Shown: positions 3,876-52,606 of the stretch, in pieces
Position numbering within the stretch: the first letter of the stretch is position 1
Layout of the letters: every line of letters starts with the position of its first letter
IMG/VR virus record: IMGVR_UViG_3300032397_000001
Reading direction: 5' to 3' (one strand)
Length of the DNA: 64,000 nucleotides
Source of the DNA: a virus
Notes under the pieces: model-generated
The model's input: the letters and a program-made list of their open reading frames with translations, nothing else
Database searches by the model: none
What the model was told of the DNA's origin: nothing
Position numbers and translations under genes: made by a program

Positions 3876-4521
3876 TTGGGAAAAATATGTACCAGTAGTA
3901 AGATATCACGCAGCCAGACTTTGTAAACGGACGAAGGTTTCATTTGACGACCTTTTCCAAAGTGGGTGCGTGGGTCTTTTTGAAGCGTTGGGAAGGCTTG
4001 ACGAGGACTTAAGCCTTCCCCAGCAATCTCACTTCGTTAGACAGTATATTTGGCATCACGTCCTACGAGCTATCAGAGAACTCCAACACCCTGTTTACAT
4101 TCCTTTATATCTTAATCGCAAAATAAATAACAACGAAATCCATATTTCTTCTATCTCTGAAAGCTTTCTAGACATAGAAGAAGGCTCACAAGACAAGAAA
4201 TCATATTCGAAGTCTCCTCATCCTAATTTTGTTACCTCATCTAATGAAGTAGTCTCTCGTTGTCATTATCGACGTATCGTTGAACTTTCTATATATAAAT
4301 TATTAGAAAGTGAACAAATCGATGTGATTGAATGTTTATGTTTTCTGCTTTTCCATGGACTCTTTAATTACCCCCGATTTCCTTTAGAAGATATATCCAA
4401 GATAATTGAAATCTCAGCAAATACAGTTTCGAAGAAAGTTTTAAAGGTAATGCGTGTCCTAAAGGTGAATGTTCCTATATATTATGAGAAAGATAGTATA
4501 TTCAATGGAAATGGGGAGTGA
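3865..4521 (+). CDS. Sigma70-family RNA polymerase sigma factor
   Basis: Region 2.2 DDLFQSGCVGLFEALGRLD; region-4-like HTH PLEDISKIIEISANTVSK. Confidence 0.8.
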   Translation: MESNWEKYVPVVRYHAARLCKRTKVSFDDLFQSGCVGLFEALGRLDEDLSLPQQSHFVRQYIWHHVLRAIRELQHPVYIPLYLNRKINNNEIHISSISESFLDIEEGSQDKKSYSKSPHPNFVTSSNEVVSRCHYRRIVELSIYKLLESEQIDVIECLCFLLFHGLFNYPRFPLEDISKIIEISANTVSKKVLKVMRVLKVNVPIYYEKDSIFNGNGE

Positions 4522-5056: not shown

Positions 5057-5543
5057 TCAAGAAAGTGGTGAGTATGTTGCAACACGCGATGCAAGGGAAA
5101 ATGATGGTGGAGCCCATGCTCGTGTAATTCAGCTTATCGATATTGCACAACGAGAACTTTCACAAGTTACTCTACGAGGAGTAGGCGCACCAATTTCTTC
5201 CGCCGATAGCATTGATTTAACAAATTCACCCGCAGAATTAATCAGCACCAAACTTACCGTGGGTGACAAAACTACGTTGATCATAGATGTTGAGCATGTA
5301 GCAAATGATGGTGATGTAAGTATCACTCCAATCTTTTTCAATGTAGGTGGTACGGTAATTGGAATTGGTACTACAAAAACGTCCGCTATGGGGACAGCAA
5401 AGTTCAGGATGGGAGCCTCGAGTGGCAACTACAAAAGCCCTCGACTTGAATGGGACCTTCAAGGAGCAGCTTATGTAGGAGTACATATTACTGTCATTGG
5501 AGGATCTGCTAATGGAGTAGTCCTAAAAGGCGGATTGATTTAA
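5028..5543 (+). CDS. Probable virion structural protein (beta-rich)
   Basis: Gly/Thr/Val-rich 171 aa at the head of the structural module; TAATG coupling downstream. Confidence 0.5.
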   Translation: MAEKSTRIADQESGEYVATRDARENDGGAHARVIQLIDIAQRELSQVTLRGVGAPISSADSIDLTNSPAELISTKLTVGDKTTLIIDVEHVANDGDVSITPIFFNVGGTVIGIGTTKTSAMGTAKFRMGASSGNYKSPRLEWDLQGAAYVGVHITVIGGSANGVVLKGGLI

Positions 5544-7510
5544 TGTCACTCTTGAAGAGGCAAAGACAGAGCAACATTTCTGGCTTTATGGATGTTGAGA
5601 GGCAGTCTGGCTTGCCCCTTGAAAAAAGTATGTCTCTCCCACATTTGCCAGAAGATCCCACTCCTGAGTCCTTGGTTGACAGCTGGCTCAATGTTATCGA
5701 AGCTAACATCAAGTTTAGATCTTTCCGTCATCGCACTTACACTACTCAACGAACTGTTGAACTTGAGACTTTGATTGGAACATTTCAAGATTTCTATCGC
5801 GACGAAGATGATCAATCTGATTTTGAGTTTGGGGTTCTCGAGCATATTAATGCTGATGCAGGATACCTTGAACTAGATAAAATATCAACTCTTGATTCTG
5901 ATCAAATCAAAGGTGTAAGTATTGGCGAAACTGTAGTTGTTATCATTCGTTCTGATAATAGGGCATGGTGTCAAGGTCTAAACTTTTTCGGTCAATTAGG
6001 CGATGGAACACGTGAAGAGCGTGATACTTATGTTCCTACTTCGTTAATTGATGTTGTTCAAGTTGCAGCTGGTGATTATCATGTTCTTGCTTTGAAAAGT
6101 AACGGAACAGTCTGGGCCTGGGGAAGAAACAATTATGGTCAAGTAGGAAATAACTCTTATGTCCCCCAGGAAACCCCAGTTCAAGTTTTAGATAGTGTAA
6201 CAGGAATTGCTGCAGGAAGTTTTCATTCCATCGCATTCAAAAATGATGGCTCGGTTTACACATGGGGATGGAATGGAAGTGGTCAGTTGGGGCGAGGTAC
6301 TTTAGAAGATCGCTTGATTCCTACAGCTGTCCCTGCAATGACAAATGTAGTCGCCGTCTCTGGAGGATACAGGCATTCTCTTTTGGTTAAAAGTGATGGA
6401 TCAGTTTGGGGTGCAGGAAGTAATAAAAGAAAACAATTGTCAGATGCAGTAGGAGTTGCACAAGGTCAAGATATTGTTGTCAAAGTTTTTCAACGATTAT
6501 CTTTATCTGTGTTAACAAATGTGATAAAAGTATCTGCAGGACGTCAACACTCAATTGCTCTTAAGAGTAATAACTCAATTTGGTGTTGGGGTGATAATCA
6601 CTACGAACAATTATGTAGAGATAAAGATAGCGTTGCTTCTGGTATTGAAGAATCAATAACTCCTTTGCAAGTATTTGAGTCTAATAAAACCACTCCTGTA
6701 TATGCAAACAAAATCATCGCAAGCTGGTGGAGTGGTCTTATTTATGACACAACTTATAGTAAGTTAAGAGGTTGGGGTTCAAATGGTTGGTGTCAACTAG
6801 GCTTTTGGGGTAGCACTTATCCCACTCATAATACATTTGATTCACCTCAGAATGTTTCACTTGGAACAAGTATAGAGACTTGGGGCGCAGGTGGAAAAAA
6901 CATTTTTTACCAGCGAGTTTTGGGAGGTCCCATATATAAGACAATATCTTCAGGAGCAATACGCCATGGATTAAATCACGGGCAGTTTGTTCCTACCATA
7001 GAGGTATTTGGAAGTGTCCCTGAAGATCGCTCTGATCAGGATAGTGGAAATTCCTCAACTCTTGTATATGAAGGTTCAGGAAATCCGAGTGATGTATGGT
7101 ATACAGACTTTAGTTCATATGAGTTGGAAGGGAGTCGAGTTGCAATTTACGATTTGACAATAGTCGGAATAACAGATAATCCTCGAATGAAATGTAAAGG
7201 TCTTATTGCGGGATACACAAAACTATTTTTTGACGTTTGTATTTCATTTAATAAAGGTGCTACATGGTCTGATTGGATTACTGTATGGGAAGAGACTCCT
7301 GCAAAGCATATAACAAATCCTTCTGATCCTGCTCAGGGAGAATGGATAAGTGCAACCTTTAACAGTGGTTTTTTCACGATACCACAAATTCCTTTGTCAT
7401 TACCTATTAATTCAGTGTATTTGAAAGCAAAAACTAGATTCTATTCACGGGGGTGTTTTTCACCTCAGGTAACAGAGTTTATTCTTGATGTGCCTAACTA
7501 TCTTATTTGA
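5543..7510 (+). CDS. RCC1-repeat beta-propeller protein, probable tail/receptor-binding component
   Basis: Repeated VAAGxxHxLALKSxGTVWAWGxNxxGQLG blades. Confidence 0.85.
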   Translation: MSLLKRQRQSNISGFMDVERQSGLPLEKSMSLPHLPEDPTPESLVDSWLNVIEANIKFRSFRHRTYTTQRTVELETLIGTFQDFYRDEDDQSDFEFGVLEHINADAGYLELDKISTLDSDQIKGVSIGETVVVIIRSDNRAWCQGLNFFGQLGDGTREERDTYVPTSLIDVVQVAAGDYHVLALKSNGTVWAWGRNNYGQVGNNSYVPQETPVQVLDSVTGIAAGSFHSIAFKNDGSVYTWGWNGSGQLGRGTLEDRLIPTAVPAMTNVVAVSGGYRHSLLVKSDGSVWGAGSNKRKQLSDAVGVAQGQDIVVKVFQRLSLSVLTNVIKVSAGRQHSIALKSNNSIWCWGDNHYEQLCRDKDSVASGIEESITPLQVFESNKTTPVYANKIIASWWSGLIYDTTYSKLRGWGSNGWCQLGFWGSTYPTHNTFDSPQNVSLGTSIETWGAGGKNIFYQRVLGGPIYKTISSGAIRHGLNHGQFVPTIEVFGSVPEDRSDQDSGNSSTLVYEGSGNPSDVWYTDFSSYELEGSRVAIYDLTIVGITDNPRMKCKGLIAGYTKLFFDVCISFNKGATWSDWITVWEETPAKHITNPSDPAQGEWISATFNSGFFTIPQIPLSLPINSVYLKAKTRFYSRGCFSPQVTEFILDVPNYLI

Positions 7511-7517: not shown

Positions 7518-10500
7518 ATGTCTGAAGAGAAGATTTTAAGAAATATTCAGGAGATGGTTATCAAGCTTCCTGAGCTTGAGTTTGACCCAGATATTAATTC
7601 TGGTGTTGACCAATGGATTAATACCACTGAAAAAGTTTTGAAGATTCGTGATGCTGTTGGTGGTACTACAAACTTTCCTCTTGATGAGATTCCCGCTACA
7701 GGTTCACCTATTATACTAAAAGGTCCAGATATTTTTTCTGTTGGAGAACACTGGGGCTTAGAGCAACATATTGTAGATCCCAGTAATCTTGTTGAAGGGT
7801 ATTATCTTACATTAGAGCGCAAAGCCCCAGAAATGTCTCGTACTGTTGCAGGTATCAATCATAGTTTAGCTCTCGATGTTCAAGGTAAAGTATGGTCATG
7901 GGGAAAATACCAGGAATATAATGGCGAATTAGAAGTCAATGAGAAAACAGGTCAGTTAGGTAATCCTTCGTATAATGGCAATCCTTTGCCTATGCACGAT
8001 GGATTCAATGAAGGTTTGTTTGTAACTGATGCGGTAGATTTCTTTGTGGGTCAAGACCATTCATATATAAAAAGAAAAGACAATTCATGGTGGTATTGTG
8101 GAAAGCGTTCATTTGAGGGTGTTTATTCTGTTGCAGGAAATGGTGAATCATTTTGTATTATTCTCCCTAATGTAGATTATGTACTCATTAAGAAGATTTA
8201 TAATGTTGATCGTGAGGCAGGATGGGTAAAGCGTCCCTTGCCAGTAAAAGCTGATTGGCGTGTCATTGGCTTTATTCCTACCCATTTCACATTAGATTAT
8301 ATTAATCAGTTAGAACCTTTTCAAAAAGGCGATGTGGTTACAGGTGTAACTTCAGGAGCAATAGCTACTATTGATAGTGGCGCCCTTCAAGGAAATTATA
8401 TTGATTCAGGGTCTCTTATTGTAAAAAATAGAATCCCTAACTTAGATTTCCAGTCAGATGAAACTCTTCGAGTAGGGTCAGCTGATAAAGCCACAGTTAA
8501 AATATCAGCAAGTTATCGTGGTTTCTTTTCCAAAGGAACCTTCTGTACCTTAGCATATAATAGTGATGTTGCAGTCTATTCAGAAGACGGAAAAGAATGG
8601 GTTCAAGTAACCCTTCCGATCAGTGGAAAATGGATTGATTGCTGTTACACAGAAAATTATTTTCTTGCGATATCTGAGGAAGGTTATGTTATAAAGACAT
8701 CAGATGGAATTAATTGGTCTTTCTTGGCATTAAATATTGTTCAACCTGAAAAATCGTTAGCCTACAATAATTTGCAGACAGGTAAGTCGTTTGCAGTTAA
8801 TGATGTTGTTATAGGTCATTCTTCAGGAATTACTGCAATAGTTGCAGACGTTGTTCCCGACCAAGCTGAACTAAATTATGATGGTGCTCCAGTCGCAGCA
8901 GTTCAGTATTATAAAGATATGCTGTATTCAAGATTGGAATATGATAATGCTCAGCCTGTCACAGGTGATGTTTATAAAGGGTTTGATGCAGGTCAGATCC
9001 TTGTAGGAGAAACTTCTGGCGCATCAGCAGTTATCAAGTATTCCTTTAGAGCTACTGCGACTATAGGAGTAGTTTACGTAGATGATATTCATGGAATCTT
9101 TGAGGATGATGAAATCTTATTGGTGGCAAATGAATATGTAGCAAATGTAAATAGCACTACAAGTGCTATTCGTTCATTCAAAATAGGTGATACAGTAAAA
9201 GGAAAATGGTCAGGTACGGTAGGTGCGGTTGCTTCATCTCAACCTTTAGGGCCTACTGGGTGGCTTACATTAATTGATATCGCGGGAACATTTCAAGATA
9301 TTGAACCTCTCATTCGTAATGACGACGGATTCGAGTTCTGTAAGGCGGACTTAGAGACCTTACCTATATCCATCTTCTATAAAGGTGATGTAGTAAAAGG
9401 TGTTTTGTCAAATGCACACGCTCGTGTTGTTGAGAATTATTATACAGGAATCCTTTCTTACGACACTTTACAAGATGGCAAATCATTTAATGTTGATGAT
9501 ATCGTCTATGGTGGAACTAGTGGTACAACAGGAAAAATTACTTTGGTAGATGCTCCTAATAAAAAACTCACCTTAGAAACTGTTCTGGGATCTTTTCAGG
9601 ATAATGAGCATCTTTTGGTGGATAATGATTTTATTGCTAAGGTTAATGGTAAGTTAATTGTTACAAGTGGTAAATTAGTTGTAGACAAGATTGTCGGAAG
9701 TTTCATAAATAATGAACACCTAGAAGTAAAGAGTATTTATCTCGCAGATGTTGATGGCACTTTAATGTTTAAATCCGGAATACTTTCACTTGGTAGTGTT
9801 TCCGGATCTTTTCAAGATGATGAACAATTGTACATCTCTGGAGAACACGTAGCCAATGCTAATGGTATTTCAGAAGACTGGGTTGGGGGCCCAATAACTT
9901 GGCAAACAATTATTGGAAAGTATCATACAGTTATTGCTCTCGCAAAAAATAGTAGTATTGCGGTACGCTCAACTAATCAAGGCCAAAGCTTTTCGAGAGT
10001 AAGTGTTCCAATCAAACGAGATTGGGCGTCCTCAATTGCTTGCTGGTGTCCTGGACAGATCAATCAAGATAGTTTGTACTTTTTAGTATTCGCAGAAGGA
10101 TCTCGAGAGTATTTGCGATCTCAGGATGGAAGTAGTTGGAAAGTTTATGTTTTCTCTACTGCTGGTGAAATAGGATTTGATACTCTCCAGTATCGTGATT
10201 GGCAATCTGGAACTGTTAAGGGCGAAACGACACTTTTTGCTGCTTCTCTGACTTACGAGAAAGAAGATTCAATTGATAGGTATGCTGGACAGTTAACTGT
10301 TGAGTTAGATTATGATACATTGTTATCTTATAACTCGAAGAAGAGTGAAAGGTATGTTGCTGACGAAAAATTATTAAGTGGCCCTTCAGAATTATACGTT
10401 GCTGATGCCGATGGAACAATAACAGGAATAACAGCTTTTCTATATGTGAATCAATGTGCTCGTGCATTGCGTATTCCATTTAAGAATGGTGTTCCTGCTC

Positions 10501-13500
10501 TCGTTAATGCATTGTCTCCAGGCGATGTTCTTATAGAAAATATTTCTGGGAAGAGTGTAACACTCTCTGGAATTGATAAACGTGAACGTTTGACTTATAA
10601 GAATGGTAGACAATCTTTATCACAGACTTCAGATTTTCATATTACAGGTAAATGGTCTGGTGCAAAGGCATCGGTCAGAGAAATCGAAACGTTTTATAGT
10701 AAGACATTAGGTTACAAAGATCTTTTAGAGAAGGGTACTCTCAAATATGATCATCTCGAGTCGGGAAGGTCTTTCTCTCCAAGCGATACGATTACAGGTC
10801 AGAGTTCAGGAGCGACTGCTTCAGTTCTGGATATGTACATTACGGAAGTGAGTGTGTCAGGAATTTTAACGATTGGAAGTGTTAGTGGATTATTTGAAAA
10901 CAATGAAAAGTTATTGGTTGGCGGTATAACTATTGCTGAATCGAATGGAATATACAAGAAAGGGTTTTCTAGAGGTGATTGGGTTGTTGGGCGTGATACA
11001 GGGAGTCGAGGATATATTATTGATTGTGATGAGACATCAAGTTCTACTGGGGTACTCAAGCTAGTTCAGATTGAAGGTGATTTTGATTGGGAAGATGTTG
11101 AAGAAGAGTTATCAGTAAATACTCTTCCAGGAGTAATAATTGCTACTTCGACAGGAGTTGCTAGTGATAGGTCTGAAGGTCGCTTAGTCATAGCAGATAG
11201 AATAGGTACTTTCATTGTAGGTGAACCACTTGTTATTGATGAATGGAAGACGTACTTTGCGGATGTTGATCAGGTTACGCAAGGTGTCTTTGGAAAACTC
11301 TTTTATCAAAAGATTGACAAACTAGACATTTATGGAACAGACGGAAGTGGAAATATAAAGCGTGTAAAGGGATGTTTGCATTATGATAATCTGCAGCCGC
11401 TCAGAAATTTCTTCATTGGTTTCATAGTTATTGGGAATACGTCAGGTAAAACGTTTACGGTAACTGCGGTCTTTGAGGATCCTCGCACCGGGTTTGAGAA
11501 ATGTGGTTATCTGTTTGGTGATGAAGCCTCAATTACAGAAATTAATGGTATGATTGAAAATGAACCGCTTCGGGGAAGGGTAAATCATTTCGCCAACTTC
11601 GATTGTGTTGATTGGGACGAATTAGAAACAATCTTTCTTACAAATGAGTGGGCTCCTGACTTCACTTTTTATAGAAAAAACTTTCAAGAGGTAAATGAGC
11701 ATGTTTGTGATTGTGAACAGTGGAGTCCTCAAGTTGTTAATCCTTTCCGTAGATATGATATTATTACTGGCAACACAGAAACTGCACGAATTCTTACATC
11801 AGAAATAAGTTCGCCTGCAGCTGAAGTTTCCCCAGGAACCTTTCGAGCTTTGGATATTGAAGCTTGCCTATATGTTGATCAAGTAAGTGGCGCTCTTTCA
11901 GGAACCGTTATAGTTGAGGACGTTATCACAGGTGCAGTATGTCAACTCGGTCCTCAGATGCAGTCAAAATATCCTAGTGCGTCTGAAATCATGGATCCTG
12001 TTTACGGTTTGGTTAAATACAAGAATAAAAAAGGTAAAGAGTTTGAAGTCGCAGATATAATTACTGGGGTGTCTTCAGGTACACGTGCAGTAATTACTGA
12101 TATTAGTGATTATGTAGCTTTGCGAGAAGGATGGCAATTCTATCATGAACTTGCTGAGATTGGTAGAATTAATTTTGATAATATTCAGACTGGGAGAAGC
12201 TTCCATGTAAATGATTGGGTTCTAGGGAACAGTTCGAAGGCACGTGCTGAGGTTTCTTACGTTTTCGATTCTGGAAATGTGCACGTCTTATTCTTGAGTG
12301 ATTTCGCTAGAACTCAATTGTTTTATGATCATCTGCAGTCTGGAAAATATTTTCTAGTAGGTGATGTGATTGTAGGAGCAACTTCAGAAGCACGAGCTAT
12401 TGTTACTCATATCTTTTCAGATTCTATTGGTTTGTCTAGTATATGGGGTACATTCCAAAATGATGAACACTTACAGGTAAACGGAATATATATTGCAGAT
12501 GTTAATGGGGTACTTTGGGAAAATCTTGAGTTCCTTGATGATGAACATCTGTATGTTGATGGTATTTACATTGCGAACGTTAATGGAAGTATTCAATACG
12601 GTTTCCAAGAAGGTGACGGAATTGAAGTCGTAGATAAATATGGTACTGAAGATCCTGTACTTCCTGTAGGCCAGTTTGTAGATCACTTTAAAGAAAATCG
12701 TGGATATTTCATTCTTGAACAGCAGGGTGAATTACTAGGCCCTGTTGTAGAAGTGCCTTATAAGAATCTGATTGCTGGTGAAGACTTTGATGTTGGATTC
12801 GATGTTGTTGGAGAAGAGTCAGGTGCTCGAGGAACTGTTCTTGAACATGAACCTGAAGTTGGTGATTTGCACTTCTTTGACTTGGAAGGTGGAGCAAGCT
12901 TTGATATTGGTGATCAGGTAGAATGTAGATATTCAGGTGCTTCAGGCAAAGTATTAAATAAGTTTAGTTATGTCACATTGGATTATGATAACCTTCAACC
13001 TGACAAAGGCTTTTATGTTGATGATCATGTTACTGGAATGAGTACTGCTGTAACAGGTACTGTTCAGGCTGTAATTGGGCACCAAACAGTTAATGCTCTT
13101 TCTTTTGATAATTATCAAGGTGTTAGAGAGTTTTATCCTGGTGAACATGTCATAGGTAATACATCATCTGCAAAGGCTCTCATTCAAAAGGTAGAAAGGA
13201 CTGGCCTCGTAGGTGTGTTGTGGTTAGTTTCTATTGATGGAGTTTTCCAGAATAATGAACACCTTCATGTAGGAAACGATTTATATTTGGCTGACACTGA
13301 TGGTATAATTTCAACTACTTATGGTTATGGATCACTATATATCAAAAACGCTTCTGGTACTTTTGTAAATGATGAGCATCTCAATACAAGTCACGGATAT
13401 ATTGCTATTGTTAATGGAGCGCCTATCAATAATGATTCTGGAGGCCTGCTTGTAGGTAACGTTTCCTTGGGGAGAGGATTTAATTGTCGTCTATTAAATG

Positions 13501-16500
13501 AGAGTATTGATGGAGAGGCCTTAAAAGGTGAATATTCAGGCGGGATAGTCACTGTGTCTGATTCTATACGGGCGCAATTTTTATCCTTCAAGAATTATCA
13601 AAAACTTGCCGGAAAGGTTTTCAATGTAGGCACTCTCATTAGAGGTTTTACCTCTAACGCTGAAGCCATTATTTTATATGTTGATGAAAGTAGTTTGAAG
13701 TTACGCCTTATCGATGTAGAGGGAACTTTTCAAGACAATGAAAAATTACTTGTGGATGATGAACACGTCGCAAATGCAGATGGTACCTTATGGGATACAT
13801 TAATTGTTGATTATGTTAACAAACTCAACTACAAGAGTTTACAACCTGGTCAAGTCTTTCATATCAGTGATATTGTTTCTGGTGCAACTTCTCATCAAAC
13901 ATCGATAGTAGAATATGTTGAAGATCATGGTGGTGGAACAGGAACTCTTGTTGTATCAAACTATACAGGTATTTACATTAAAAATGAGAATCTCAAAGTT
14001 AATAACGTCATCATTGCAACCTGTAATACTTTCAGTATCATTGGTGATCTTGATGTAAATAAAACTATCATTGGAGTTGATTCGGGTGCGACAGCTTTAG
14101 TAAAAGAAATAGATCCTCAATGCTGGACTCGGATCCTTGAGCTTTCCTGTATGACTAGTGTTAGTTATTCAGGAACATATAGAGATCGTGATAACAACTA
14201 TGCAAAGTTTGGTCTGTATGAATTATTAACATCTGCGTCTCCTGATCATTGGGGTACATCATACACTCTCGCAACTTGTTCTGGAGGCATGTCTGGACCT
14301 TTGTATGAAGTTCAAGGTGTAGGCCAAGTTGCGAATTTGAGTGTATTGAGCGTTGCTGTTACACATCCTCGTGATGGGTTACTTCTGTTAAGAAATATTA
14401 CAGATACTTTTCAGAATGGTGAGTTCTTGACGGTCGATGGTTATGTAGTTGCTAAGACAAGAGGGTTAGTGACAAAAGAAACTCCTTACGGGCGAGTCTT
14501 GCTTTCTGAGGCAAAAAAGTATCATACACTCGAACCTAACGAGTGGTTGATGTCAGATGATGATCGTGCATGTGCTATTGAATCTAATCAGTTCTTCAGT
14601 CAGAACTTCAAGCATGGCGAAGCAGTCTATATAGATGATGTAAAGAAAGCCCGAGTTTTATATAAGCCTCAGTATCATTTTGGGAGACTTATTTTAGATG
14701 ATACTAAAGGATTTTTCCATGATGGTGAGACATTAAGTTTAGATAAAGGGATTATCACTTTTGATAATTTACAGTCTGGTGCAAATTTCAAGATCGATGG
14801 AATTGTTCGAGGTATTGACTCGTTAGCTTTTGCTACACTCGTTGATTATAGTGTTGATGAAGCTAACAAAAGCGGATCTTTGTATCTCGGTGATATTCAT
14901 GGCGAGTTTGAAATTGATGAGGAAATCCATATCGAAGGGTCATATGTAGGTGATGTTGCATCACTCGTTGATTATCATAATGTAGCTATAGTTAATGCAG
15001 GAGCACGAGGCGCTTTCATTTACCTTTCAGGTACACTCCATGGATGGGATACAACCCCTCTCTTACAATTTTTCAGTGAAGAGGATCCTCCATACTGGAT
15101 GCCTTCAGAGCCTCCGGCTTACTTGTATATTAATGGTGTACAGTTTGCAGTCATTACCAGCGCCACCGAAATGAATAAAGGAGCCTATCTAAATATCAAT
15201 AACATTGAAGGTATTTTCGAAGATGGAGAGTGGTTAGAGGTCGATGGAGTATACATTGCTAGTGCAAAACGTTTCGGGCGTCAGATATGCTTTACTCCAT
15301 CAGGTCAGGTCGTACAATTCGAAGATGATTATGAAAGACGGAATTGGAAAAATGCAACATGGTCCCGTCAGAAAGGATTGTTCCTATTATCTGAAGAGAC
15401 AATGGAGAATTATGGATCTTTATTCATCTATAACTTGCAGATTCACCGAAGATGCTTTCAAGGGGATATTATTGAAGGTGAAACGTCAGGCGCGCAAGCG
15501 GAAGTTGTAGGTTATGAAGTAGGGCTTGATTATATAGTAATCTATAAGTTGAACGATATTGACTTTCAGTCAAAGGAACGTTTATTTGTAGGGGATTACT
15601 ATATTGCAGATGTCTTTGATGGAGATAGCAGTGACTTTATGGTTACTACTTCCTCTATTCAGGGATTAATGCTAAAGCAGTTAGGAATTAATGTTCAAGG
15701 TACATCATGGACTCCTGATAATGATGTCAAAGATTTTTTATGGACTGGAATATCAACTGTTTCTCCTGATGCTCCTATAGGATTGACAGTCGCACAAGTC
15801 ACATCACATCTAAGTAATTATCCTGCAGAAGTCGTTCATCCTTTCGATTTGATGCCTGGTTTAGATCCAGATGAAACGCTGCTCGATCAAGGGTGGCCTA
15901 ATTATGAGGGAATGAAGAAGTTAGTAAATTCACCTTATCTAGGTGATTTGTGTCTGATGAATAACGGTGACGTTTGGACTAGAGGGGCTGAACTCTTTAA
16001 ATGGTCTGCAGTGGCTTACAATAGTACTATTTTTGTAGCTTTCGGGTTAAACAGCGACAAAGTTGCGAGAGGGTACTTTGAAGATGTTCTTGAAGACGAA
16101 CTCAAATTAAAGTTCTATGAGCGTGTCAGTGCACAAAACTTTGATGTGGGAGATACCGTTGTTGGTCACACATCTGGTGTTTCGGGTATTGTATCAGTAG
16201 GCACATATCCTACCACAGAACCATTTCCTGATCCACGAAGTCTTAAAGCTGCATATATTGAGTTTCAACCCGGAACAGTTTCAGGTGATTTTCTTGAGAG
16301 TGAACTACTCTACAAAAATGGGAAGCAAATTGCTCGTGTTGAGCATTGGTTAAAAACAATTGATAAATCTAAATTACGCTCTAGTGTAACTTACTACAAT
16401 CTACCAAGTTCGAAAGCATGGAGTTCAGTTGTTTGGAATGGTTCCGTATTTTGTGCAGTAGCACGGAATAGTGATTCAGCAGCAACTTCGTCTGATGGAA

Positions 16501-19500
16501 TTACCTGGTTAGCCAGAACTCTTCCCGTTATTGCTGATTGGAATTTAATTGTTGCTCATGGTTCGACATTAATTGCTTTTATATATCAAAGTAAAACTTA
16601 TGCTGTATCTTCAGACAATGGAGTTTCTTGGGGTACCTATTCTACATTACCTGCTGTAGGTAATTGGTCAGCAGGTGCTTCGAGTGGTTCAAAATTAGTA
16701 GTCTTTTCTGAGAACAGTAACCTGGTTGTGGTTACAACTAACTTGGTAAGTTGGACTAGTAACGGTCTACCTTACGGAGGATTATACTGGTCTTCAGTTG
16801 TTTGGAATGGTTCAGTTTTCTGTGTAGTTGCACGGAACAGCCCATTTGTAGTAACCTCGTCTGATGGAAACACTTGGACTCATGTAGGCACATTTCATGA
16901 TATTAATGGTGCTAATAGTATCATTGCAGTTGGAAGCACCTTGTATGTTGAGTACTGGAAATCTATAGACAATGGAATTACTTGGACTAATGTTTTAGAA
17001 TCTTCATGGGATAGCTTACCTATAGGTGACACCTTAATAGGTACTATTTATAGACAAGCCGATCTTAGCGATCACAAGAAAAATTCTTTGGTATTCATTT
17101 GTAACGATGGTGTAGTCAAAGCGTCTTCACTTTACGAATATATTCACTGCGACACTGTCACAGTAACTATAAATAATGATGATCTCGATGATTATACAAC
17201 TGAGGCTGGTGAATGGTTACAGATAACTGAATTAGACAATATTGTTGATATTGCAGCTGGAAATAAACATTTCTTGTTCCTTGATTCTGATGGTGCTGTT
17301 TACGCAATGGGGGATAATCAATATGGTCAATTAGGTAACAACTCAACTGTCGATTCATTATACCCAACACAGATTACTCAATTGGCTTCTATGCTCATTG
17401 AAAAAATCTTCAGTGAAGGAAATAAATGTTGGGGAATTAATGATAGTGGGAATGTTTACGCTTGGGGAGAAAATCAGTATGGAGAGCTTGGATTGAATCC
17501 TAGTCTGTGGCCAGTAAGAGGCCCTCTGATTTCTACATTTTTACAAGACTCAATAATAATCACCGAAAGTTATGCTCTCAAATCTGATGGAACTATTTGG
17601 TCTCTTGAAGATCGTAAACAATTGTGGGCTTTCATTGGTAGCTGTAGTGATCTCTCACAAAAGGACGATGAAGTAAACTTTGTAGGTTCTGATCGAATGC
17701 TCTGGACTTTAAGTGAATCTGGAATACCTTTACAGAAGTTTGGAGAGCGTACTAGTGTCATTGATATGAGTAAGGCTCCATCTGATTATCAAGCTCTTGT
17801 GTTTGATAACAATACTATTTGGGGTAGAAGATGTATCTTAACTGGATCGGGCGAAGTCTCTGAGTTTATATGGCGGGGAGATAACATTATAAAAGCTCTC
17901 ATTGGGCGCCATATGAATCTTCAGTACTTTTCTAGTCAACCGCCTGGTCAGGAAGCACGATTTAATAGTGCATTTTCTCAGTATTGTTTCTTCCTTAAAG
18001 AGGATGGGACTGTATGGGCAAAGACATTATTGTTGTATGACAGTGAAGAAATAACTGAGTCATATAATAAGGCTTACTTGGGAACTACTGATATCGCATT
18101 CAGTCTCATCAGTACCAATGGAAAAATGCTTCACTTTAATACTTGTTTAGATTGGGAGTATAATTTAGATAAACCCCATGGCCAATTCATGCTTGCAAAT
18201 ATTCCTACCGGCATCGAAGATGTAGGATTTACCAGCGAAGTGTTTTTCGGAATCAAATCAGGTTTTACTAATAGAGGATACGTATCTCGAGATGGCTTTA
18301 GTTGGGATGAAGTAATATTACCATTCACAGGTGATTGGATCATTGCTCATTATGATCGGATTGATCATTATATCAGTGGTATCTTTGGTGGTACTGAATA
18401 CGATAGCTATTCTGATATGAAGTGGGGTATCCCTCTTGTTATATTGGCAAGAGGTCAAGGAACAGTTCTTCATTCTGAAGATGGTGTTCGATGGAATGGA
18501 TACTTCATTACTCCTATAATTGAGCAGTGGAAGAAAGTAATTGCTGCAAAAGAATTTCTTGAATCAGAATATGCAACTGAAGCACACTCTTGTACATATT
18601 TTGCGATTGTTGATGGTAGCGTAAATTATTTCTATATGTCAACAAATATTAAGAAGTGGGTTAAGAAAACACTGCCTATTACTGCGACATGGATTGATTT
18701 AATTCATATCAAGATCAACAATGCCACTGAAAATGTTACAGCATTTCTTGCTTCTGACCAGAACAAGATAATTTATTATGATTGGAATACTGGTACATGT
18801 ACTACTATTAATTTACCTACAAGGCCCACAGGTTCAACATGGAAAAGTTTGGCTAGAACATATTCTGCACAACTTGCAGCTCTTCCTTCAAAAGGTAATA
18901 AAGCAGCAGTTTGCAATTATGTTAGTTCACCCACTACTTGGAGTGAATGTACTTTACCTCATAATGCTACCTCTTGGAATGTTGTTTTAGGGTGGACTGA
19001 TAAGAAGTTCATCATTGTTAGTATTGCAGACAACAAAGCATATGTATCTGAGAATGCGTGGAGTGGAAATCTTCCAGTTGAAAGTTCTTGGGTAGAATTT
19101 AGTTTACCTGCTGGCGCTTCATCTTATAGTTATGTAGGTGCTTCTCGGTTTACTCCTTTGGGCTTGCCCTCAATTTTACGTAATCATACAAAAACGCCTG
19201 TACAATTAGAAGGGCTAACTGGTATCACTCAAATCAGTTTTCTGTATGCTGCTTACAATGTACATAATGAAAAGTATTATGGTTTCCCAGTTTCCGGAAT
19301 GTTTCCAATGGTTATCAAGAATGATGGAACTGTATGGATTTGGTCTCCTATCGAACTTCAGCCTAGACAGTTAACAGGATTGACTAATATTTCTCAAATT
19401 GGAGTTGATGACGAAGGATCTGCAGATGTATTAGCAGAAGTTGTAGTCACTGCAAAAAGAATAGTATATTATAAAAAAAAGCAAGTAGGTAGATCATTTT

Positions 19501-20858
19501 ACAGCCCGATCACAGGAGAAACCTCTGGTGCCATTATAACTTCTTTTCTGAGTACAGTCTTAGGAGCAGCTAGTGGATATTTGCTAATTTCAAGTATGAC
19601 AGGTAATTTCATAGATGGCGAACGCTTAAGGGTTGGTGGGAAATACACTGCAAATGTTGAGGGGGCTGATTTTAGTATCCTTGCAGTTGGTGGTAATATT
19701 GAAGGAAGATCTTCAGGAAGTACAGGAACCATTACTTCTGTAACAGAGTTAACAAAGCATACCGCAAGAATTCAACTTAATAATGTAAAGGCGAAAACGA
19801 GTTATGATGACCCGTTCAATCCCTGGTATTATTCTTCTACACCTCCAGGATTTCAGAATAGTGAAATCCTGAACATAGTTTACAGATCTTCATATGATCC
19901 CCAAGAACCATTGAGAGGATACATTTACAAAACGTATTCAGGGACCATTTCAAGTATCACACAATACTGGTTTAGAGATAGATATTATGCTCTCAAATCT
20001 GATGGAACTGTTTGGTCTTGGACAATGGATCGCGAAACTCTTGAAGTTATAGAATCTCTCCATCAAATTCCAAAATTGATTAACATAGAAGAGATTCATA
20101 TAGGCCCACCTAATGTTGCAATCAACACAGATAGAAGAGCATATTATTTCAGAGGGTCTGATAGCATTGGTGAATATGTTATACTAATCCCTCGCTTGGG
20201 GCAAATTAAAACTGTTTCTTGTGGCGGTGTTAGTGATCCTGTGCAGGGATATTATCGACAAGGCATAGCTATCGATTATGATAATAAGGTTTATCGCTTT
20301 ACAGAGTGGTTGGGCGACACTCTTGCAGATCAGTGGGATGTGTATTGGAAAAGATTCTTCCCTGTTGAAATCACTGAACGATTATACGATACAATTCGAA
20401 GTGTATTTGGATCTGCTAACATTGAAAGTATTCAATATGTATCTGACAGATATTGGGCATTCGTTGATCAAAAGGGCAAACTATATCACTTACAGAACTC
20501 ATTACAATTTCCTTATTCAGAAACAACTCCTGCTTTTACTGAGTTAGTTAAGTATTGTGATTACTTGTATTATGGTGAGAAGGGAGAATGGGTCTTTACA
20601 TTAGACTTATCAAAGGTGGGTAAGATTGGATCTTTCAATCTTGGTGGGTCTATCACAAACAAATATTACAGAATTTCACATGATAGAGGACAAACATGGA
20701 GTGATTGGGTTAATGGATATGGATTGGAATTAATCCTTTGGGTAGGATTGGAAGTGTATGATTCTTTACTGCAAATAAAGTATAGCCTCGAAGTTGACCC
20801 AGATGATTGGACTCAAAGTGCAGAACTCAACCTGGATATAGAAATTCAACCAGAATGA
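7518..20858 (+). CDS. Giant 4446-aa virion/tail-associated protein: RCC1 blades, Asp-box (BNR) propellers and >25 copies of a ~70-aa beta domain in nested order
   Basis: RCC1 motifs (GDNQYGQLG, ALKSDGTVW), SxDGxxW boxes, repeat LxYDNLQ..F.VGD.V.G..SGA.A.V...G.L.L....G.FQDNE.L.V....A..NG. Confidence 0.85.
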   Translation: MSEEKILRNIQEMVIKLPELEFDPDINSGVDQWINTTEKVLKIRDAVGGTTNFPLDEIPATGSPIILKGPDIFSVGEHWGLEQHIVDPSNLVEGYYLTLERKAPEMSRTVAGINHSLALDVQGKVWSWGKYQEYNGELEVNEKTGQLGNPSYNGNPLPMHDGFNEGLFVTDAVDFFVGQDHSYIKRKDNSWWYCGKRSFEGVYSVAGNGESFCIILPNVDYVLIKKIYNVDREAGWVKRPLPVKADWRVIGFIPTHFTLDYINQLEPFQKGDVVTGVTSGAIATIDSGALQGNYIDSGSLIVKNRIPNLDFQSDETLRVGSADKATVKISASYRGFFSKGTFCTLAYNSDVAVYSEDGKEWVQVTLPISGKWIDCCYTENYFLAISEEGYVIKTSDGINWSFLALNIVQPEKSLAYNNLQTGKSFAVNDVVIGHSSGITAIVADVVPDQAELNYDGAPVAAVQYYKDMLYSRLEYDNAQPVTGDVYKGFDAGQILVGETSGASAVIKYSFRATATIGVVYVDDIHGIFEDDEILLVANEYVANVNSTTSAIRSFKIGDTVKGKWSGTVGAVASSQPLGPTGWLTLIDIAGTFQDIEPLIRNDDGFEFCKADLETLPISIFYKGDVVKGVLSNAHARVVENYYTGILSYDTLQDGKSFNVDDIVYGGTSGTTGKITLVDAPNKKLTLETVLGSFQDNEHLLVDNDFIAKVNGKLIVTSGKLVVDKIVGSFINNEHLEVKSIYLADVDGTLMFKSGILSLGSVSGSFQDDEQLYISGEHVANANGISEDWVGGPITWQTIIGKYHTVIALAKNSSIAVRSTNQGQSFSRVSVPIKRDWASSIACWCPGQINQDSLYFLVFAEGSREYLRSQDGSSWKVYVFSTAGEIGFDTLQYRDWQSGTVKGETTLFAASLTYEKEDSIDRYAGQLTVELDYDTLLSYNSKKSERYVADEKLLSGPSELYVADADGTITGITAFLYVNQCARALRIPFKNGVPALVNALSPGDVLIENISGKSVTLSGIDKRERLTYKNGRQSLSQTSDFHITGKWSGAKASVREIETFYSKTLGYKDLLEKGTLKYDHLESGRSFSPSDTITGQSSGATASVLDMYITEVSVSGILTIGSVSGLFENNEKLLVGGITIAESNGIYKKGFSRGDWVVGRDTGSRGYIIDCDETSSSTGVLKLVQIEGDFDWEDVEEELSVNTLPGVIIATSTGVASDRSEGRLVIADRIGTFIVGEPLVIDEWKTYFADVDQVTQGVFGKLFYQKIDKLDIYGTDGSGNIKRVKGCLHYDNLQPLRNFFIGFIVIGNTSGKTFTVTAVFEDPRTGFEKCGYLFGDEASITEINGMIENEPLRGRVNHFANFDCVDWDELETIFLTNEWAPDFTFYRKNFQEVNEHVCDCEQWSPQVVNPFRRYDIITGNTETARILTSEISSPAAEVSPGTFRALDIEACLYVDQVSGALSGTVIVEDVITGAVCQLGPQMQSKYPSASEIMDPVYGLVKYKNKKGKEFEVADIITGVSSGTRAVITDISDYVALREGWQFYHELAEIGRINFDNIQTGRSFHVNDWVLGNSSKARAEVSYVFDSGNVHVLFLSDFARTQLFYDHLQSGKYFLVGDVIVGATSEARAIVTHIFSDSIGLSSIWGTFQNDEHLQVNGIYIADVNGVLWENLEFLDDEHLYVDGIYIANVNGSIQYGFQEGDGIEVVDKYGTEDPVLPVGQFVDHFKENRGYFILEQQGELLGPVVEVPYKNLIAGEDFDVGFDVVGEESGARGTVLEHEPEVGDLHFFDLEGGASFDIGDQVECRYSGASGKVLNKFSYVTLDYDNLQPDKGFYVDDHVTGMSTAVTGTVQAVIGHQTVNALSFDNYQGVREFYPGEHVIGNTSSAKALIQKVERTGLVGVLWLVSIDGVFQNNEHLHVGNDLYLADTDGIISTTYGYGSLYIKNASGTFVNDEHLNTSHGYIAIVNGAPINNDSGGLLVGNVSLGRGFNCRLLNESIDGEALKGEYSGGIVTVSDSIRAQFLSFKNYQKLAGKVFNVGTLIRGFTSNAEAIILYVDESSLKLRLIDVEGTFQDNEKLLVDDEHVANADGTLWDTLIVDYVNKLNYKSLQPGQVFHISDIVSGATSHQTSIVEYVEDHGGGTGTLVVSNYTGIYIKNENLKVNNVIIATCNTFSIIGDLDVNKTIIGVDSGATALVKEIDPQCWTRILELSCMTSVSYSGTYRDRDNNYAKFGLYELLTSASPDHWGTSYTLATCSGGMSGPLYEVQGVGQVANLSVLSVAVTHPRDGLLLLRNITDTFQNGEFLTVDGYVVAKTRGLVTKETPYGRVLLSEAKKYHTLEPNEWLMSDDDRACAIESNQFFSQNFKHGEAVYIDDVKKARVLYKPQYHFGRLILDDTKGFFHDGETLSLDKGIITFDNLQSGANFKIDGIVRGIDSLAFATLVDYSVDEANKSGSLYLGDIHGEFEIDEEIHIEGSYVGDVASLVDYHNVAIVNAGARGAFIYLSGTLHGWDTTPLLQFFSEEDPPYWMPSEPPAYLYINGVQFAVITSATEMNKGAYLNINNIEGIFEDGEWLEVDGVYIASAKRFGRQICFTPSGQVVQFEDDYERRNWKNATWSRQKGLFLLSEETMENYGSLFIYNLQIHRRCFQGDIIEGETSGAQAEVVGYEVGLDYIVIYKLNDIDFQSKERLFVGDYYIADVFDGDSSDFMVTTSSIQGLMLKQLGINVQGTSWTPDNDVKDFLWTGISTVSPDAPIGLTVAQVTSHLSNYPAEVVHPFDLMPGLDPDETLLDQGWPNYEGMKKLVNSPYLGDLCLMNNGDVWTRGAELFKWSAVAYNSTIFVAFGLNSDKVARGYFEDVLEDELKLKFYERVSAQNFDVGDTVVGHTSGVSGIVSVGTYPTTEPFPDPRSLKAAYIEFQPGTVSGDFLESELLYKNGKQIARVEHWLKTIDKSKLRSSVTYYNLPSSKAWSSVVWNGSVFCAVARNSDSAATSSDGITWLARTLPVIADWNLIVAHGSTLIAFIYQSKTYAVSSDNGVSWGTYSTLPAVGNWSAGASSGSKLVVFSENSNLVVVTTNLVSWTSNGLPYGGLYWSSVVWNGSVFCVVARNSPFVVTSSDGNTWTHVGTFHDINGANSIIAVGSTLYVEYWKSIDNGITWTNVLESSWDSLPIGDTLIGTIYRQADLSDHKKNSLVFICNDGVVKASSLYEYIHCDTVTVTINNDDLDDYTTEAGEWLQITELDNIVDIAAGNKHFLFLDSDGAVYAMGDNQYGQLGNNSTVDSLYPTQITQLASMLIEKIFSEGNKCWGINDSGNVYAWGENQYGELGLNPSLWPVRGPLISTFLQDSIIITESYALKSDGTIWSLEDRKQLWAFIGSCSDLSQKDDEVNFVGSDRMLWTLSESGIPLQKFGERTSVIDMSKAPSDYQALVFDNNTIWGRRCILTGSGEVSEFIWRGDNIIKALIGRHMNLQYFSSQPPGQEARFNSAFSQYCFFLKEDGTVWAKTLLLYDSEEITESYNKAYLGTTDIAFSLISTNGKMLHFNTCLDWEYNLDKPHGQFMLANIPTGIEDVGFTSEVFFGIKSGFTNRGYVSRDGFSWDEVILPFTGDWIIAHYDRIDHYISGIFGGTEYDSYSDMKWGIPLVILARGQGTVLHSEDGVRWNGYFITPIIEQWKKVIAAKEFLESEYATEAHSCTYFAIVDGSVNYFYMSTNIKKWVKKTLPITATWIDLIHIKINNATENVTAFLASDQNKIIYYDWNTGTCTTINLPTRPTGSTWKSLARTYSAQLAALPSKGNKAAVCNYVSSPTTWSECTLPHNATSWNVVLGWTDKKFIIVSIADNKAYVSENAWSGNLPVESSWVEFSLPAGASSYSYVGASRFTPLGLPSILRNHTKTPVQLEGLTGITQISFLYAAYNVHNEKYYGFPVSGMFPMVIKNDGTVWIWSPIELQPRQLTGLTNISQIGVDDEGSADVLAEVVVTAKRIVYYKKKQVGRSFYSPITGETSGAIITSFLSTVLGAASGYLLISSMTGNFIDGERLRVGGKYTANVEGADFSILAVGGNIEGRSSGSTGTITSVTELTKHTARIQLNNVKAKTSYDDPFNPWYYSSTPPGFQNSEILNIVYRSSYDPQEPLRGYIYKTYSGTISSITQYWFRDRYYALKSDGTVWSWTMDRETLEVIESLHQIPKLINIEEIHIGPPNVAINTDRRAYYFRGSDSIGEYVILIPRLGQIKTVSCGGVSDPVQGYYRQGIAIDYDNKVYRFTEWLGDTLADQWDVYWKRFFPVEITERLYDTIRSVFGSANIESIQYVSDRYWAFVDQKGKLYHLQNSLQFPYSETTPAFTELVKYCDYLYYGEKGEWVFTLDLSKVGKIGSFNLGGSITNKYYRISHDRGQTWSDWVNGYGLELILWVGLEVYDSLLQIKYSLEVDPDDWTQSAELNLDIEIQPE

Positions 20859-22465
20859 AAAGATACTACGACGATAGAGAATCGGTTACATCAGGGGAAA
20901 GAACGTCTGCTTTGATTCCTCAAACTCCTATTGTTATTGAAATACAACGAATTCCCGAATTTGATACTGATCCTGAAATCCCTATAGGATACAAAGAAAT
21001 AGTTGCACCTAATATGTGGTTCAACCGAACTGAGAAACGTATCAAGGTTCGCTCACCTTCAGGTAATGTTTACTTTCTGAAATCAGGACCGAAAGACGTT
21101 GTGACAGGAGAACCTTATTACTACTCATCTGGCGGCGGAGGTGAAATCCCCACTGAATGGAGTAGTAATTTGATGTATCCCAATGAAAGATATGGAACAA
21201 CTGTATATGATGGTGACTCCCCGCCCAATAAATGGGATTTTTTACATCTTAATGATGGAGAAATTTCAGAGCTCGTTCTTATTACTGATCCTGGAGACGG
21301 GTTTATCTTTTATTTCAAAGAGGCTCAACATATTCAAAAGGCTCGTTTTTACGATTTATATGATGATCTTACTACCGAAACGTTTAAGTTACAAGGATAC
21401 GATGTAAGTTGGGAAGATCTTGTAACTGCTATTCCGTGTCAACTAGGATGGCAGGAAGTTACTTTTGCGACTGCTAAAAGTTATAGAGAGTATCGTTTAC
21501 TATGTGAGAGTGATGAACGACAGTTTGGTTGTACTGAATGGGAAATGTATAAAGGTGCTGTAACAGGCGTAACTTGGTCATATGAGAATTTTACATCTGA
21601 GAAAAGTGAGACTGATTGCCAACCTATTGCTCATTTGCTTCCTGGAAGTGCTTGTGGTAATGCGTATGATGCTAACACAGTTACCGCGACACAGTTTAAA
21701 TTGACAGTAAATACATATGGTGATGCTCCTTGGTGGACTGCGCAGTTTGCTACACCTATACGAGTTGATAAGATACGAGTTTACAAATTTCATGTTGACT
21801 ATGCTCCTGATACGTGTTACATGGAAATAATGAAAGACAAAGACACTATTTATGGCATATCTTCTGCAGTGTTAGTTAGAGATATCCCATCAAGTGTAGA
21901 TTGGGAAGAGAGTGTATTTGTTGATGATAGCCCATTTATTTGCCCCATTTATGGATTGGCCTGCCGAGTTCGATCTCAAGGGTATATTGCCACCAAAAAT
22001 CAAACGGCTAGTTTATATGAAGCAGAATTCTACAGAGCAACTCCTGGTTACACTTATGGTTCAAATATTTGTATCAGTGCAAATGGTGCGATCTCAGGTT
22101 CAGGTGAATGCTCAAACACAGCTAACATCATAGATGAGAATGGTACAACTTATGGGCGAACAAATGTCGATGGTGCTGAACAGTATGGCTGGATTCAGTT
22201 TACTTTTAGTGTAGCAAAGCAGATTCAGAAAGTCAAAGCATACAAATTAAATCATGAGTGGAGTCCAGGTTCAGGGTTTGAGATAAGAGCTTATGATAGT
22301 GAAAGTGGGTTGTGGGAATTACTAGTTATGAGAATTCCTGAGTTTAATGGGTGGGGTGAATATGAATTCGAAAACAACAAGAGTTATACACAGTATCGAA
22401 TACATAGTAAGAGTGGATATGACACATTAATTTGCTACTCTTTAGAAATGTATGAACGGACATGA
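20855..22465 (+). CDS. Protein with three tandem discoidin/F5-8-like (carbohydrate-binding) domains; probable receptor-binding protein
   Basis: ATGA overlap at 20855; three repeats with F..A..I.K.R.Y and E.EMY-type ends. Confidence 0.6.
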   Translation: MKRYYDDRESVTSGERTSALIPQTPIVIEIQRIPEFDTDPEIPIGYKEIVAPNMWFNRTEKRIKVRSPSGNVYFLKSGPKDVVTGEPYYYSSGGGGEIPTEWSSNLMYPNERYGTTVYDGDSPPNKWDFLHLNDGEISELVLITDPGDGFIFYFKEAQHIQKARFYDLYDDLTTETFKLQGYDVSWEDLVTAIPCQLGWQEVTFATAKSYREYRLLCESDERQFGCTEWEMYKGAVTGVTWSYENFTSEKSETDCQPIAHLLPGSACGNAYDANTVTATQFKLTVNTYGDAPWWTAQFATPIRVDKIRVYKFHVDYAPDTCYMEIMKDKDTIYGISSAVLVRDIPSSVDWEESVFVDDSPFICPIYGLACRVRSQGYIATKNQTASLYEAEFYRATPGYTYGSNICISANGAISGSGECSNTANIIDENGTTYGRTNVDGAEQYGWIQFTFSVAKQIQKVKAYKLNHEWSPGSGFEIRAYDSESGLWELLVMRIPEFNGWGEYEFENNKSYTQYRIHSKSGYDTLICYSLEMYERT

Positions 22466-23824: not shown

Positions 23825-24820
23825 ATGAAAGAGCAACCTATCGGTTTAGATATTGGAACTATGTTTCTGGTAAGTGCAGAGAAATCCGGCGATGGTCAGA
23901 TCACATTTTCTAAGTTGAGAAACATGTTTCTTCGAGTGGATGATCCAATGTCTTTGGATTTATCTAAAATATCTCATGCTATTATAGATAATGAATTGTT
24001 CATCTTATCTGAGGATGCTTATAGTTTGCCTTCTATTTTAGGGCACCGCGTAGATCGCCCTATGGTACATGGGTTCATTAATCCTACAGAGATTAACTCA
24101 CTCGATGTTCTTTCCACAATGATTAAACGGTTAATTGGAACTTGTGAGGGCAACTTTCCTTGTTGTTTTTCTGTTCCTGGTAACCCCATTGATTTAGAAG
24201 CAAACGTCCTTTATCATAGAAAAGTTTTAGAGCGTATCGTTAAGAGCTTAGGATATAATCCTATCCCTTTAAATGAGGCTGCTGCTATCGTTCTTTCGGA
24301 GTGTGATAATTTTAATGGTATAGGAATCTCTTTTGGCGCGGGCGCTACAAACGTTGCTATCACATATAAGGCTATTCCTGTATTTGATTTTTGTGTTGTT
24401 CGTGGAGGAGATTGGATTGATGAGAATGCAGCGAATGCTACTGGTACAATACCAAGTAGAATCACTTCTCTTAAAGAAAGACATATAGATCTATCAAATT
24501 TTGAGCAGGGTGAGAAACGTGAACGAAGGATTCGAGAGGCTGTTGTTTATTACTATGCTGAACTCATTAGATATACATTGAATACAATTATGAAGGAATT
24601 AGTAAGAAGAACAGAGAAGCTTAATTTACCTGATGAGATCCCTTTGGTGGTTTCAGGAGGAACATCTTTAGCTCAGGGATTCATGACGCTTTTCAATCAA
24701 CTCTTGGATTCCTATCGAAGCAAGCTTCCGTTCAAACTGTCAGAGGTTAGACAAGCAAAAGATCCTCTGAATGCTGTTGCTGAAGGTTGCTTAATAAGAG
24801 CTTTAGTGCAACTAAAATGA
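23825..24820 (+). CDS. Actin-like ATPase (MreB/MamK/ParM superfamily)
   Basis: Phosphate-1 IGLDIGT, connect-1 LNEAAA, phosphate-2 SFGAGATN, adenosine VSGGTS, connect-2 DPLNAVAEG. Confidence 0.88.
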   Translation: MKEQPIGLDIGTMFLVSAEKSGDGQITFSKLRNMFLRVDDPMSLDLSKISHAIIDNELFILSEDAYSLPSILGHRVDRPMVHGFINPTEINSLDVLSTMIKRLIGTCEGNFPCCFSVPGNPIDLEANVLYHRKVLERIVKSLGYNPIPLNEAAAIVLSECDNFNGIGISFGAGATNVAITYKAIPVFDFCVVRGGDWIDENAANATGTIPSRITSLKERHIDLSNFEQGEKRERRIREAVVYYYAELIRYTLNTIMKELVRRTEKLNLPDEIPLVVSGGTSLAQGFMTLFNQLLDSYRSKLPFKLSEVRQAKDPLNAVAEGCLIRALVQLK

Positions 24821-52031: not shown

Positions 52032-52606
52032 AAAGAGCGTTAATGTTTACTCAAGTCGAAAGAGAACCTCTAATTCAAATATCAACTTTCCAGAATCAGG
52101 GGTTATACTTTCCTTTTGTTCGGGTTGATAATACTTTACACTTTACATGTGAATGTTTAAATTCAATTCCTTGTGATGAAATGCTAAAGATGTCTTTATT
52201 CCCTTTAAATGCTTTAGTTAATCCTGTATTTCGAGATCGATTCCAGAGTGAATTTGAACTTGTTATGCTTGAAACATGGGATAGCAATCATTCTATAGTA
52301 ATTCCGATCTTTGGAGAAATTCCTCAGTATATAGAGCTATTTTATTTATGGGAATTATTCTTGATGCATGTTGAGGATGTATTTTCCATCCCTTCAACAC
52401 TTGATCTGCTTAAGTTCAAGGTGAAGCTTGAGGAGTCAGAAGAGGCTGCGCCATTAATTTTACAATCGTTTCCCTCGAAGAAGAAATTTGTTTGTTGGCT
52501 TCCTTTGGTAGATTATGCTTTACGTGGGTTGAATGGAGTTCTGTCTACTTGTGAGTGTGGTAGGACGTTTGGAATAATTCAAAAGATGTTATTGCATTAC
52601 AGATGA
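52016..52606 (+). CDS. Hypothetical protein
   Basis: 196-aa ORF, CEC motifs. Confidence 0.55.
   Translation: MDSNIERALMFTQVEREPLIQISTFQNQGLYFPFVRVDNTLHFTCECLNSIPCDEMLKMSLFPLNALVNPVFRDRFQSEFELVMLETWDSNHSIVIPIFGEIPQYIELFYLWELFLMHVEDVFSIPSTLDLLKFKVKLEESEEAAPLILQSFPSKKKFVCWLPLVDYALRGLNGVLSTCECGRTFGIIQKMLLHYR

Follow-up and report, generated by a model that had tools for sequence, protein, structure and literature searches.

The window analyzed here, 64,000 nucleotides (nt) of IMG/VR virus record IMGVR_UViG_3300032397_000001, belongs to a large phage genome with a GC content of 38%, which comes from sediment metagenomes and carries polymerase, helicase, primase, ligase, gyrase and sigma-factor genes. 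It contains an open reading frame (ORF) of 4446 codons (7518-20858; this and all features of the gene given below are on the plus strand) whose product has propeller blades, RCC1-like and BNR-like, that bear about 30 copies of a six-stranded beta-barrel of about 72 amino acids (aa) each, a count that comes from a curated parse and includes weak copies. A single profile recovers all barrel copies, which indicates that the repeats are copies of one homologous domain. A preliminary description of this gene had proposed that, at 8750-15280, the three segments of the repeat (a, b and c) close like balanced parentheses, whole copies having been inserted into surface loops of other copies. Nested folding is indeed supported, by a predicted structural model of one ab[abc]c stretch, weakly for the first block of copies, and by nested cases in unrelated proteins.

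The barrel unit consists of six elements (a, b1, b2, c1, c2 and c3). Profiles for segments a, b and c were built solely from uninterrupted copies and scanned along the protein, and the order of the hits was compared with the grammar U -> a U* b U* c. The hits land where the segments had been placed by eye. In block 1 (aa 412-788, nt 8751-9881), the series of hits is a412, b424, a450, (a461), a471, b488, c517, b553, c581, b619, a644, b656, c682, c718 and c754, that is, five a, five b and five c in a well-formed bracket order, as previously proposed. Such orders account for 273 of the 756,756 possible ones (3.6e-4), the null for this and the other bracket statistics being random orderings rather than a duplication model. 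The outer barrel of the block, U1, opens with its first half (a1 b1, numbered by unit; 8751-8858) and is followed by strand a of U2 (a2, 8865-8885), which is parted from its b by the U3/U4 subtree and is clear (p 2e-4 per position, or 5e-4 with a profile that holds no copy from the giant protein). Then come a weak candidate strand a of U3 (a3, 8898-8918; p 0.02-0.04 per position), the uninterrupted barrel U4 (8928-9161), the deepest leaf, at depth 4 if a3 is real, b and c of U3 without an adjacent a (9174-9353), b of U2 (9372-9443), the uninterrupted barrel U5, a second branch in the b-c loop of U2 (9447-9659), c of U2 (9669-9767) and, closing the block, c of U1 (9777-9881).

The order given earlier for block 2 also stands. 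The core of this block (10584-11282) reads a b a a b c b c c, parsed as a b [a [abc] b c] c with a depth of 3, one of the 12 well-formed orders among 1680 (7e-3), and with b998 placed in front it yields the 'ab, ab, a, abc, bc, c' of the preliminary description. Weaker tokens (several with p 0.02-0.5) extend the block to aa 972-1480 and the depth to as much as 5. A full copy inside segment c is found as described: at 12006-12692, the copy at aa 1599-1667 sits in c of the copy at aa 1549-1695, and the latter, judging from the segment hits, is itself probably inside a copy starting at aa 1497, the outer c1 strand of which is weak (p 0.13). The segment profiles read ab ab ab abc c at 12747-13442, in agreement with the opening order reported for this region, and the cleanest ab[abc]c stretch, with two nested barrels in the predicted model, spans 12954-13448 (aa 1813-1977). 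About eight further barrels, the pairing of which is ambiguous, are located at 13443-15272, including a full copy within the last hairpin of another (aa 2389-2495). The doubt expressed earlier on the parse after ~13430 was justified: it is ambiguous after aa 1975 (nt 13440) because the b and c halves are related (a to c1 and b1 to c2) and some copies are degenerate. Rather than 'at least three', four insertion loops are used, namely, a-b1, b2-c1, c1-c2 (insert at aa 1599-1667) and c2-c3 (insert at aa 2411-2486).

The stretch at aa 1813-1977 was folded with AlphaFold2 using an alignment from a search that yielded 177 distinct units. The alignment has 150 rows on the inner unit and about three on the outer halves, so that the outer pairing is not imposed by it. 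The model has a mean predicted local distance difference test score (pLDDT) of 88 and a predicted template modeling score (pTM) of 0.68, and consists of two six-stranded barrels, the outer halves having pLDDT values of 81-93 and 85-91; two continuous 19-residue strands (model residues 34-52 and 113-131) pass between the outer and the inner barrel, and DSSP likewise assigns a barrel of six strands. The matches of this model to solved structures in VIA-align fall into two classes. In the first class, the inner unit (model residues 46-123) aligns with single barrels (Z up to 8.9, root-mean-square deviation (rmsd) 2.2, 77 residues aligned). The best solved match of the unit comes from residues 764-845 of a ~1030-residue T4 baseplate chain (PDB 5IV5, 5HX2 and 9F4A; Z 8.1-8.9, rmsd 2.2 Å, 77 residues aligned), which, from its length, we take to be gp7. 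In the second class, the match covers model residues ~2-164, with just 73-83 of these aligned, to single barrels of 80-110 residues (eIF2gamma, Z 6.5; Hbs1, 6.4; SelB, 5.9; YgfZ, 5.7). These alignments imply that, in the predicted model, the outer ab and c segments together make up a single domain that surrounds the inner copy; crossed ranges, such as 1-123 or 46-161, are absent among the matches listed. The model thus supports a discontinuous domain closed around the inner copy in aa 1813-1977, and two natural ab[abc]c stretches can be aligned with the modeled one over the full length. Sequence searches of the PDB with the barrel unit gave no significant match, and neither did Foldseek against the PDB at E 0.001.

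For block 1, a split test was performed with ESMFold2, in which aa 406-750 and c of U1 (aa 751-790) were supplied as separate chains. The score was 0.47 compared with 0.01 for the best control, with at least 96% contact agreement between runs, pLDDT of 81-84 for the first chain, and 81-86 for the c partner as opposed to 24 with an unrelated chain. The mark adopted in this test is reached by 58 of 80 solved complexes and by two of 110 mismatches; passing scores of 0.60 or less, however, were obtained for only seven of the 80 solved complexes and for both mismatches, and the halves of a split domain tend to pass simply because they resemble barrels of known structure. This prediction gives weak support to c of U1 having a place in the rest of block 1, the particular place not being specified. 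The sequence parse gives one candidate branch point, a barrel hosting two inserts, at U2; the split test bears on it weakly and returns no contacts.

The nested copies lie among propeller blades. Block 1 in its entirety interrupts a BNR-like blade (8697-9992; aa 394-407 and 790-825): in a splice test, the joined blade scored 16.4 bits over profile positions 1-44, whereas its two sides taken separately reached 10.6 and 4.0 bits. If a single blade is interrupted in this manner, the ends of the block must be close together, as predicted by nesting. The same test gave no support to aa 883-2600 as one single insertion in a second blade. Four uninterrupted BNR-like blades at 16380-16877 are recognized with a profile made from the blades of the protein itself and have no Pfam match. 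RCC1-like blades at 17226-17519 (near aa 3237-3334) match PF00415 and PF13540, and nothing else in the protein matches Pfam at E 0.01; no polymerase domain was found in the domain scan, the blades being RCC1 and BNR-like instead. Barrel copies occur outside 8750-15280 as well, at aa 257 (a single uninterrupted barrel, aa 257-332, 8286-8513), ~2640, ~2870 and ~3980-4125.

The barrel module is common among phage structural proteins but lacks a Pfam annotation. The unit matches PHROG families of baseplate wedge, head closure, tail fiber and structural proteins, the wedge families matching single units only, and also structural proteins in BFVD. Most of the relatives are single or tandem, and the invariant residues of the unit look structural. 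Nested copies were found in several proteins that are otherwise unrelated to the giant protein and thus represent independent cases: in P0034, encoded on a small phage-like contig, one copy occupies the b-c loop of a second, which in turn lies within c of a third, P0002 and P0003 have a copy inside c, and P0013, P0033 and P0099 a copy in the last hairpin. In the PilY1/PilC-like proteins P0002, P0003, P0007 and P0015 (with PF05567 on P0002 and P0015), the barrel insert is circularly permuted, with c first and ab last. Nesting in unrelated proteins along with these permuted arrays implies that the module is a generally permutable plug-in. In the tandem arrays of P0008, P0017 and P0019, the joint between c2 and c3 is in some cases short and devoid of turn residues, which suggests that the last strand could be swapped between barrels. 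Searches of limited reach found no full-length homolog of the giant protein.

Nine contigs from different assemblies share the layout of the locus and are colinear across the whole gene, with 0-3 base differences each; four full-length variants of the protein are on record, and no joints appear in the aligned contigs. Misassembly, a concern of the preliminary description, is excluded by these observations. There are just four variable bases in the gene, all protein-changing, which affect aa 3987, 4038, 4042 and 4046 and in each case result in gain or loss of Lys or Arg. All four fall within 179 nt (19477-19655) of the 13,341 nt (p ~1e-5), in a single barrel copy (aa ~3980-4052, 19455-19673) that lies outside 8750-15280. 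The downstream gene (20855-22465, plus strand), with weak matches to sugar-binding folds in the Pfam scan, contains about ten variable bases (21260-22264), again all protein-changing, and the remainder of the ~30 kb compared is nearly invariant. Taken over both regions, the substitutions affect mainly the charge of the proteins. Numerous differences at the end of one contig (L013) turned out to be a fold-back at the contig end and were rejected as variation. Such a concentration of variation in one barrel and the adjacent downstream gene is typical of host-recognition proteins, and the product of 20855-22465 is likely to be a partner in host recognition. From this clustering in the sequence, the chances appear even that the barrel at aa ~3980-4050, along with the product of the downstream gene, makes contact with the host. 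For neither variable region did the window yield a template repeat of a diversity-generating retroelement. The 'multivalent adhesin' suggested earlier is not demonstrated by these data, given that the copies in 8750-15280 do not vary and the only varying barrel is outside this range. Because the arms end in barrels, without a cargo domain, any binding must come from barrels or propellers.

The genes next to the giant ORF encode a dUTPase, a sigma factor, a glycosyltransferase and an actin-like protein, and no baseplate genes were recognized among the scanned neighbors, several of which have no annotation. Immediately upstream, an RCC1 propeller protein (5543-7510) shows weak sequence similarity to the giant protein at its two ends, as though it represented the same outer shell minus the inserts. 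About 4 kb upstream of the giant gene, on contig L007 (6377-9397), lies a 1006-aa gene with a faint PTL_trimer match, the product of which is possibly another virion protein. The actin-like gene (23825-24820) has a Pfam Volactin match (E 5e-68), which is unusual for a phage. Elsewhere in the window, there is a gyrase B-like ORF of 1637 aa (52603-57516) that, as read from its translation, is split by two intein-like inserts, and a weak family-A polymerase-like gene (E 5e-5) in addition to a full DNA polymerase gene (26324-27526 and 46000-48639, respectively).

Overall, the best explanation, and one that we consider quite probable, is that the 4446-aa ORF encodes a virion protein in which a plug-in barrel forms self-nested, branched arms on a propeller scaffold. 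The barrel would be a module that can be accommodated in surface loops of any kind, those of its own copies included, with a two-stranded stalk tying it to the host protein. As the sequence shows, and for one pair the predicted model as well, copies have landed in four loops of other copies such that the halves close in a last-in-first-out order, and the chain would branch where one barrel carries inserts in two loops. Whole trees plugged into propeller blades would yield a propeller scaffold with short branched arms, one to five barrels deep, in which most barrels might be rigid spacers that additionally provide docking or shielding surface. As far as the dendritic shape is concerned, the balanced parse speaks for it, whereas branching is not seen in the model. 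The protein is likely to be located on the virion surface, in the tail or baseplate region, considering that the sequence relatives of its module lie in virion proteins. A more far-reaching version, namely, a single-chain dendritic virion appendage with propeller hubs and barrel trees up to five deep, in which the barrels bind the host and large phages generally use self-insertion to build recognition surfaces with many arms, appears rather unlikely.

The DNA of neighboring repeat halves is only 41-59% alike, which indicates that the nesting events are old. The nesting probably goes back to ancient duplications and illegitimate insertions, of which only those that left every half with a partner were retained, and such selection would explain why the inserts sit in loops. 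The loop-targeted duplication invoked in the preliminary description is therefore not required, the surviving insertions being those in loops with the halves balanced, and the DNA is too diverged to reveal the mechanism. At the sequence level, insertion of a copy at position x of its parent is indistinguishable from two adjacent half duplications; half-register recombination could be a one-step origin, although it would cover b-c loop insertions only and not those in the other three loops.

Several points weigh against this interpretation. The confident fold is limited to one two-barrel stretch, and block 1, folded as one chain by single-sequence AlphaFold2 without an alignment, has a pLDDT of 29. 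Depth 4 in block 1 depends on the weak a3 strand, and with a3 dropped, the b/c string alone would be balanced with a 1 in 6 chance. Several parses are possible beyond aa 1975, and the similarity between b and c halves fails to single out last-in-first-out pairing, which ranked fourth and twelfth among 24 pairings (Mantel p 0.22 and 0.84). No recognizable tail module surrounds the gene, the invariance of the nested copies inside 8750-15280 across the nine contigs disfavors them as receptor-binding tips, and all nine contigs might come from one sampling campaign.

Of the alternatives, the one that accepts the nested fold and denies the adhesin is the most credible, if still improbable: the protein would have an intracellular role or be a purely structural decoration, its barrels having no binding role. 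The surrounding replication and metabolism genes, the structural character of the invariant unit residues and the failure to find a close homolog in phage collections, in searches of limited reach, fit this possibility, but the relatives of the module are virion or PilY1-like proteins, and the charge-changing variation clustered in one barrel and the next gene is typical of host recognition. It is less probable still that pairing within the chain departs from the strict last-in-first-out order, with c-c or crossed barrels and a tree that would differ mainly after nt 13440. The profiles of the b and c halves do align, if modestly (hhalign probability 67%, P 5e-5), c-like halves occupy b positions at aa ~2363 and ~2533, and the PilY1-like arrays with c first and ab last demonstrate that permuted barrels exist. 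Yet, the model pairs outer ab with outer c, and the counts and order in blocks 1 and 2 fit the strict grammar.

Many phage fibers are intertwined trimers, and half-barrels of this class are able to dimerize. Orphan halves might accordingly complement a neighboring chain by domain swapping, to produce an intertwined rod instead of single-chain trees, and the ability of c of U1 to fold as a separate chain in the split test is compatible with such an oligomeric fiber. This possibility appears very remote because the monomer is already predicted to fold with high confidence, exact balance within each block would be needless for pairing in trans, and the gp7 match is monomeric in the T4 wedge (PMC3004832). 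Finally, although part of the halves are degenerate, a scrambled order that merely reflects faulty assembly or a heap of decayed half-repeats is effectively refuted by the nine colinear contigs without joints, the intact 13-kb frame, the repeat DNA identity below 60%, the balanced order and the confident model.

Among known systems, the barrels of translation GTPases (domains II/III of EF-Tu and eIF2gamma, of the RIFT or cradle-loop type) resemble the plug-in barrel in fold (Z 6-7) and in consisting of two related halves, each of which contains a GD-box-like motif. Only the fold is shared, at 4-16% identity, with no functional implication. The likeness to T4-type gp7 is closer, in that the barrel resembles residues 764-845 of that protein and has sequence relatives in baseplate wedge, head-closure and fiber families. 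The match, however, covers one continuous barrel at 9-10% identity, the giant protein is four times longer, and there is no Pfam match to the wedge-subunit family (PF23786) anywhere in it; the giant protein is not a gp7. Nested domains are known in another phage structural protein, the T4 sheath protein gp18, in which domain I (residues 98-188, a six-stranded barrel and a helix) is inside domain II, which is inside domain III, and the outer barrel binds the retracted tail fibers (PMC3004832). Unlike the giant protein, gp18 nests dissimilar domains, in one linear nest without branching.

The closest parallel is Si3 of the cyanobacterial RNA polymerase beta' subunit, which consists of eight sandwich-barrel hybrid motifs (SBHM), four of them discontinuous (PMC10895346), and for which six-level recursive insertion with bifurcating nodes has been reported (PMC13114784). 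In both Si3 and the giant protein, copies of one small beta domain are recursively inserted in each other, resulting in discontinuous domains. The differences are that the best matches of the giant protein are six-stranded barrels of the EF-Tu and gp7 types, its host is a propeller in a phage rather than the trigger loop of RNA polymerase beta', and it has ~30 copies compared with eight, in several separate trees and with four insertion loops. No SBHM structure is present among the fold matches listed, the top ones being other barrels. In its mode of nesting, the giant protein resembles Si3, but it does not appear to belong to the Si3/SBHM family.

The earlier impression that this architecture was undescribed in phages has to be qualified by the precedents of Si3, which is recursive and branching, and gp18, with its dissimilar domains; for one repeated domain, no precedent in a phage was found, and a literature search of incomplete coverage returned no paper on self-nested barrels in phage proteins. 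Nesting accounts for the scrambled appearance of such genes in the output of repeat finders. As a small scaffold tolerant of insertion in many loops and of circular permutation, the barrel should be useful for protein design, and the hot spot of variation provides the first testable handle on the role of the barrels. The interest of the finding is tempered by the fact that the principle of recursive nesting is already known. The giant phage protein extends recursive self-insertion, well documented in the single case of Si3, to another fold and a larger scale, with four insertion loops and probable branching.

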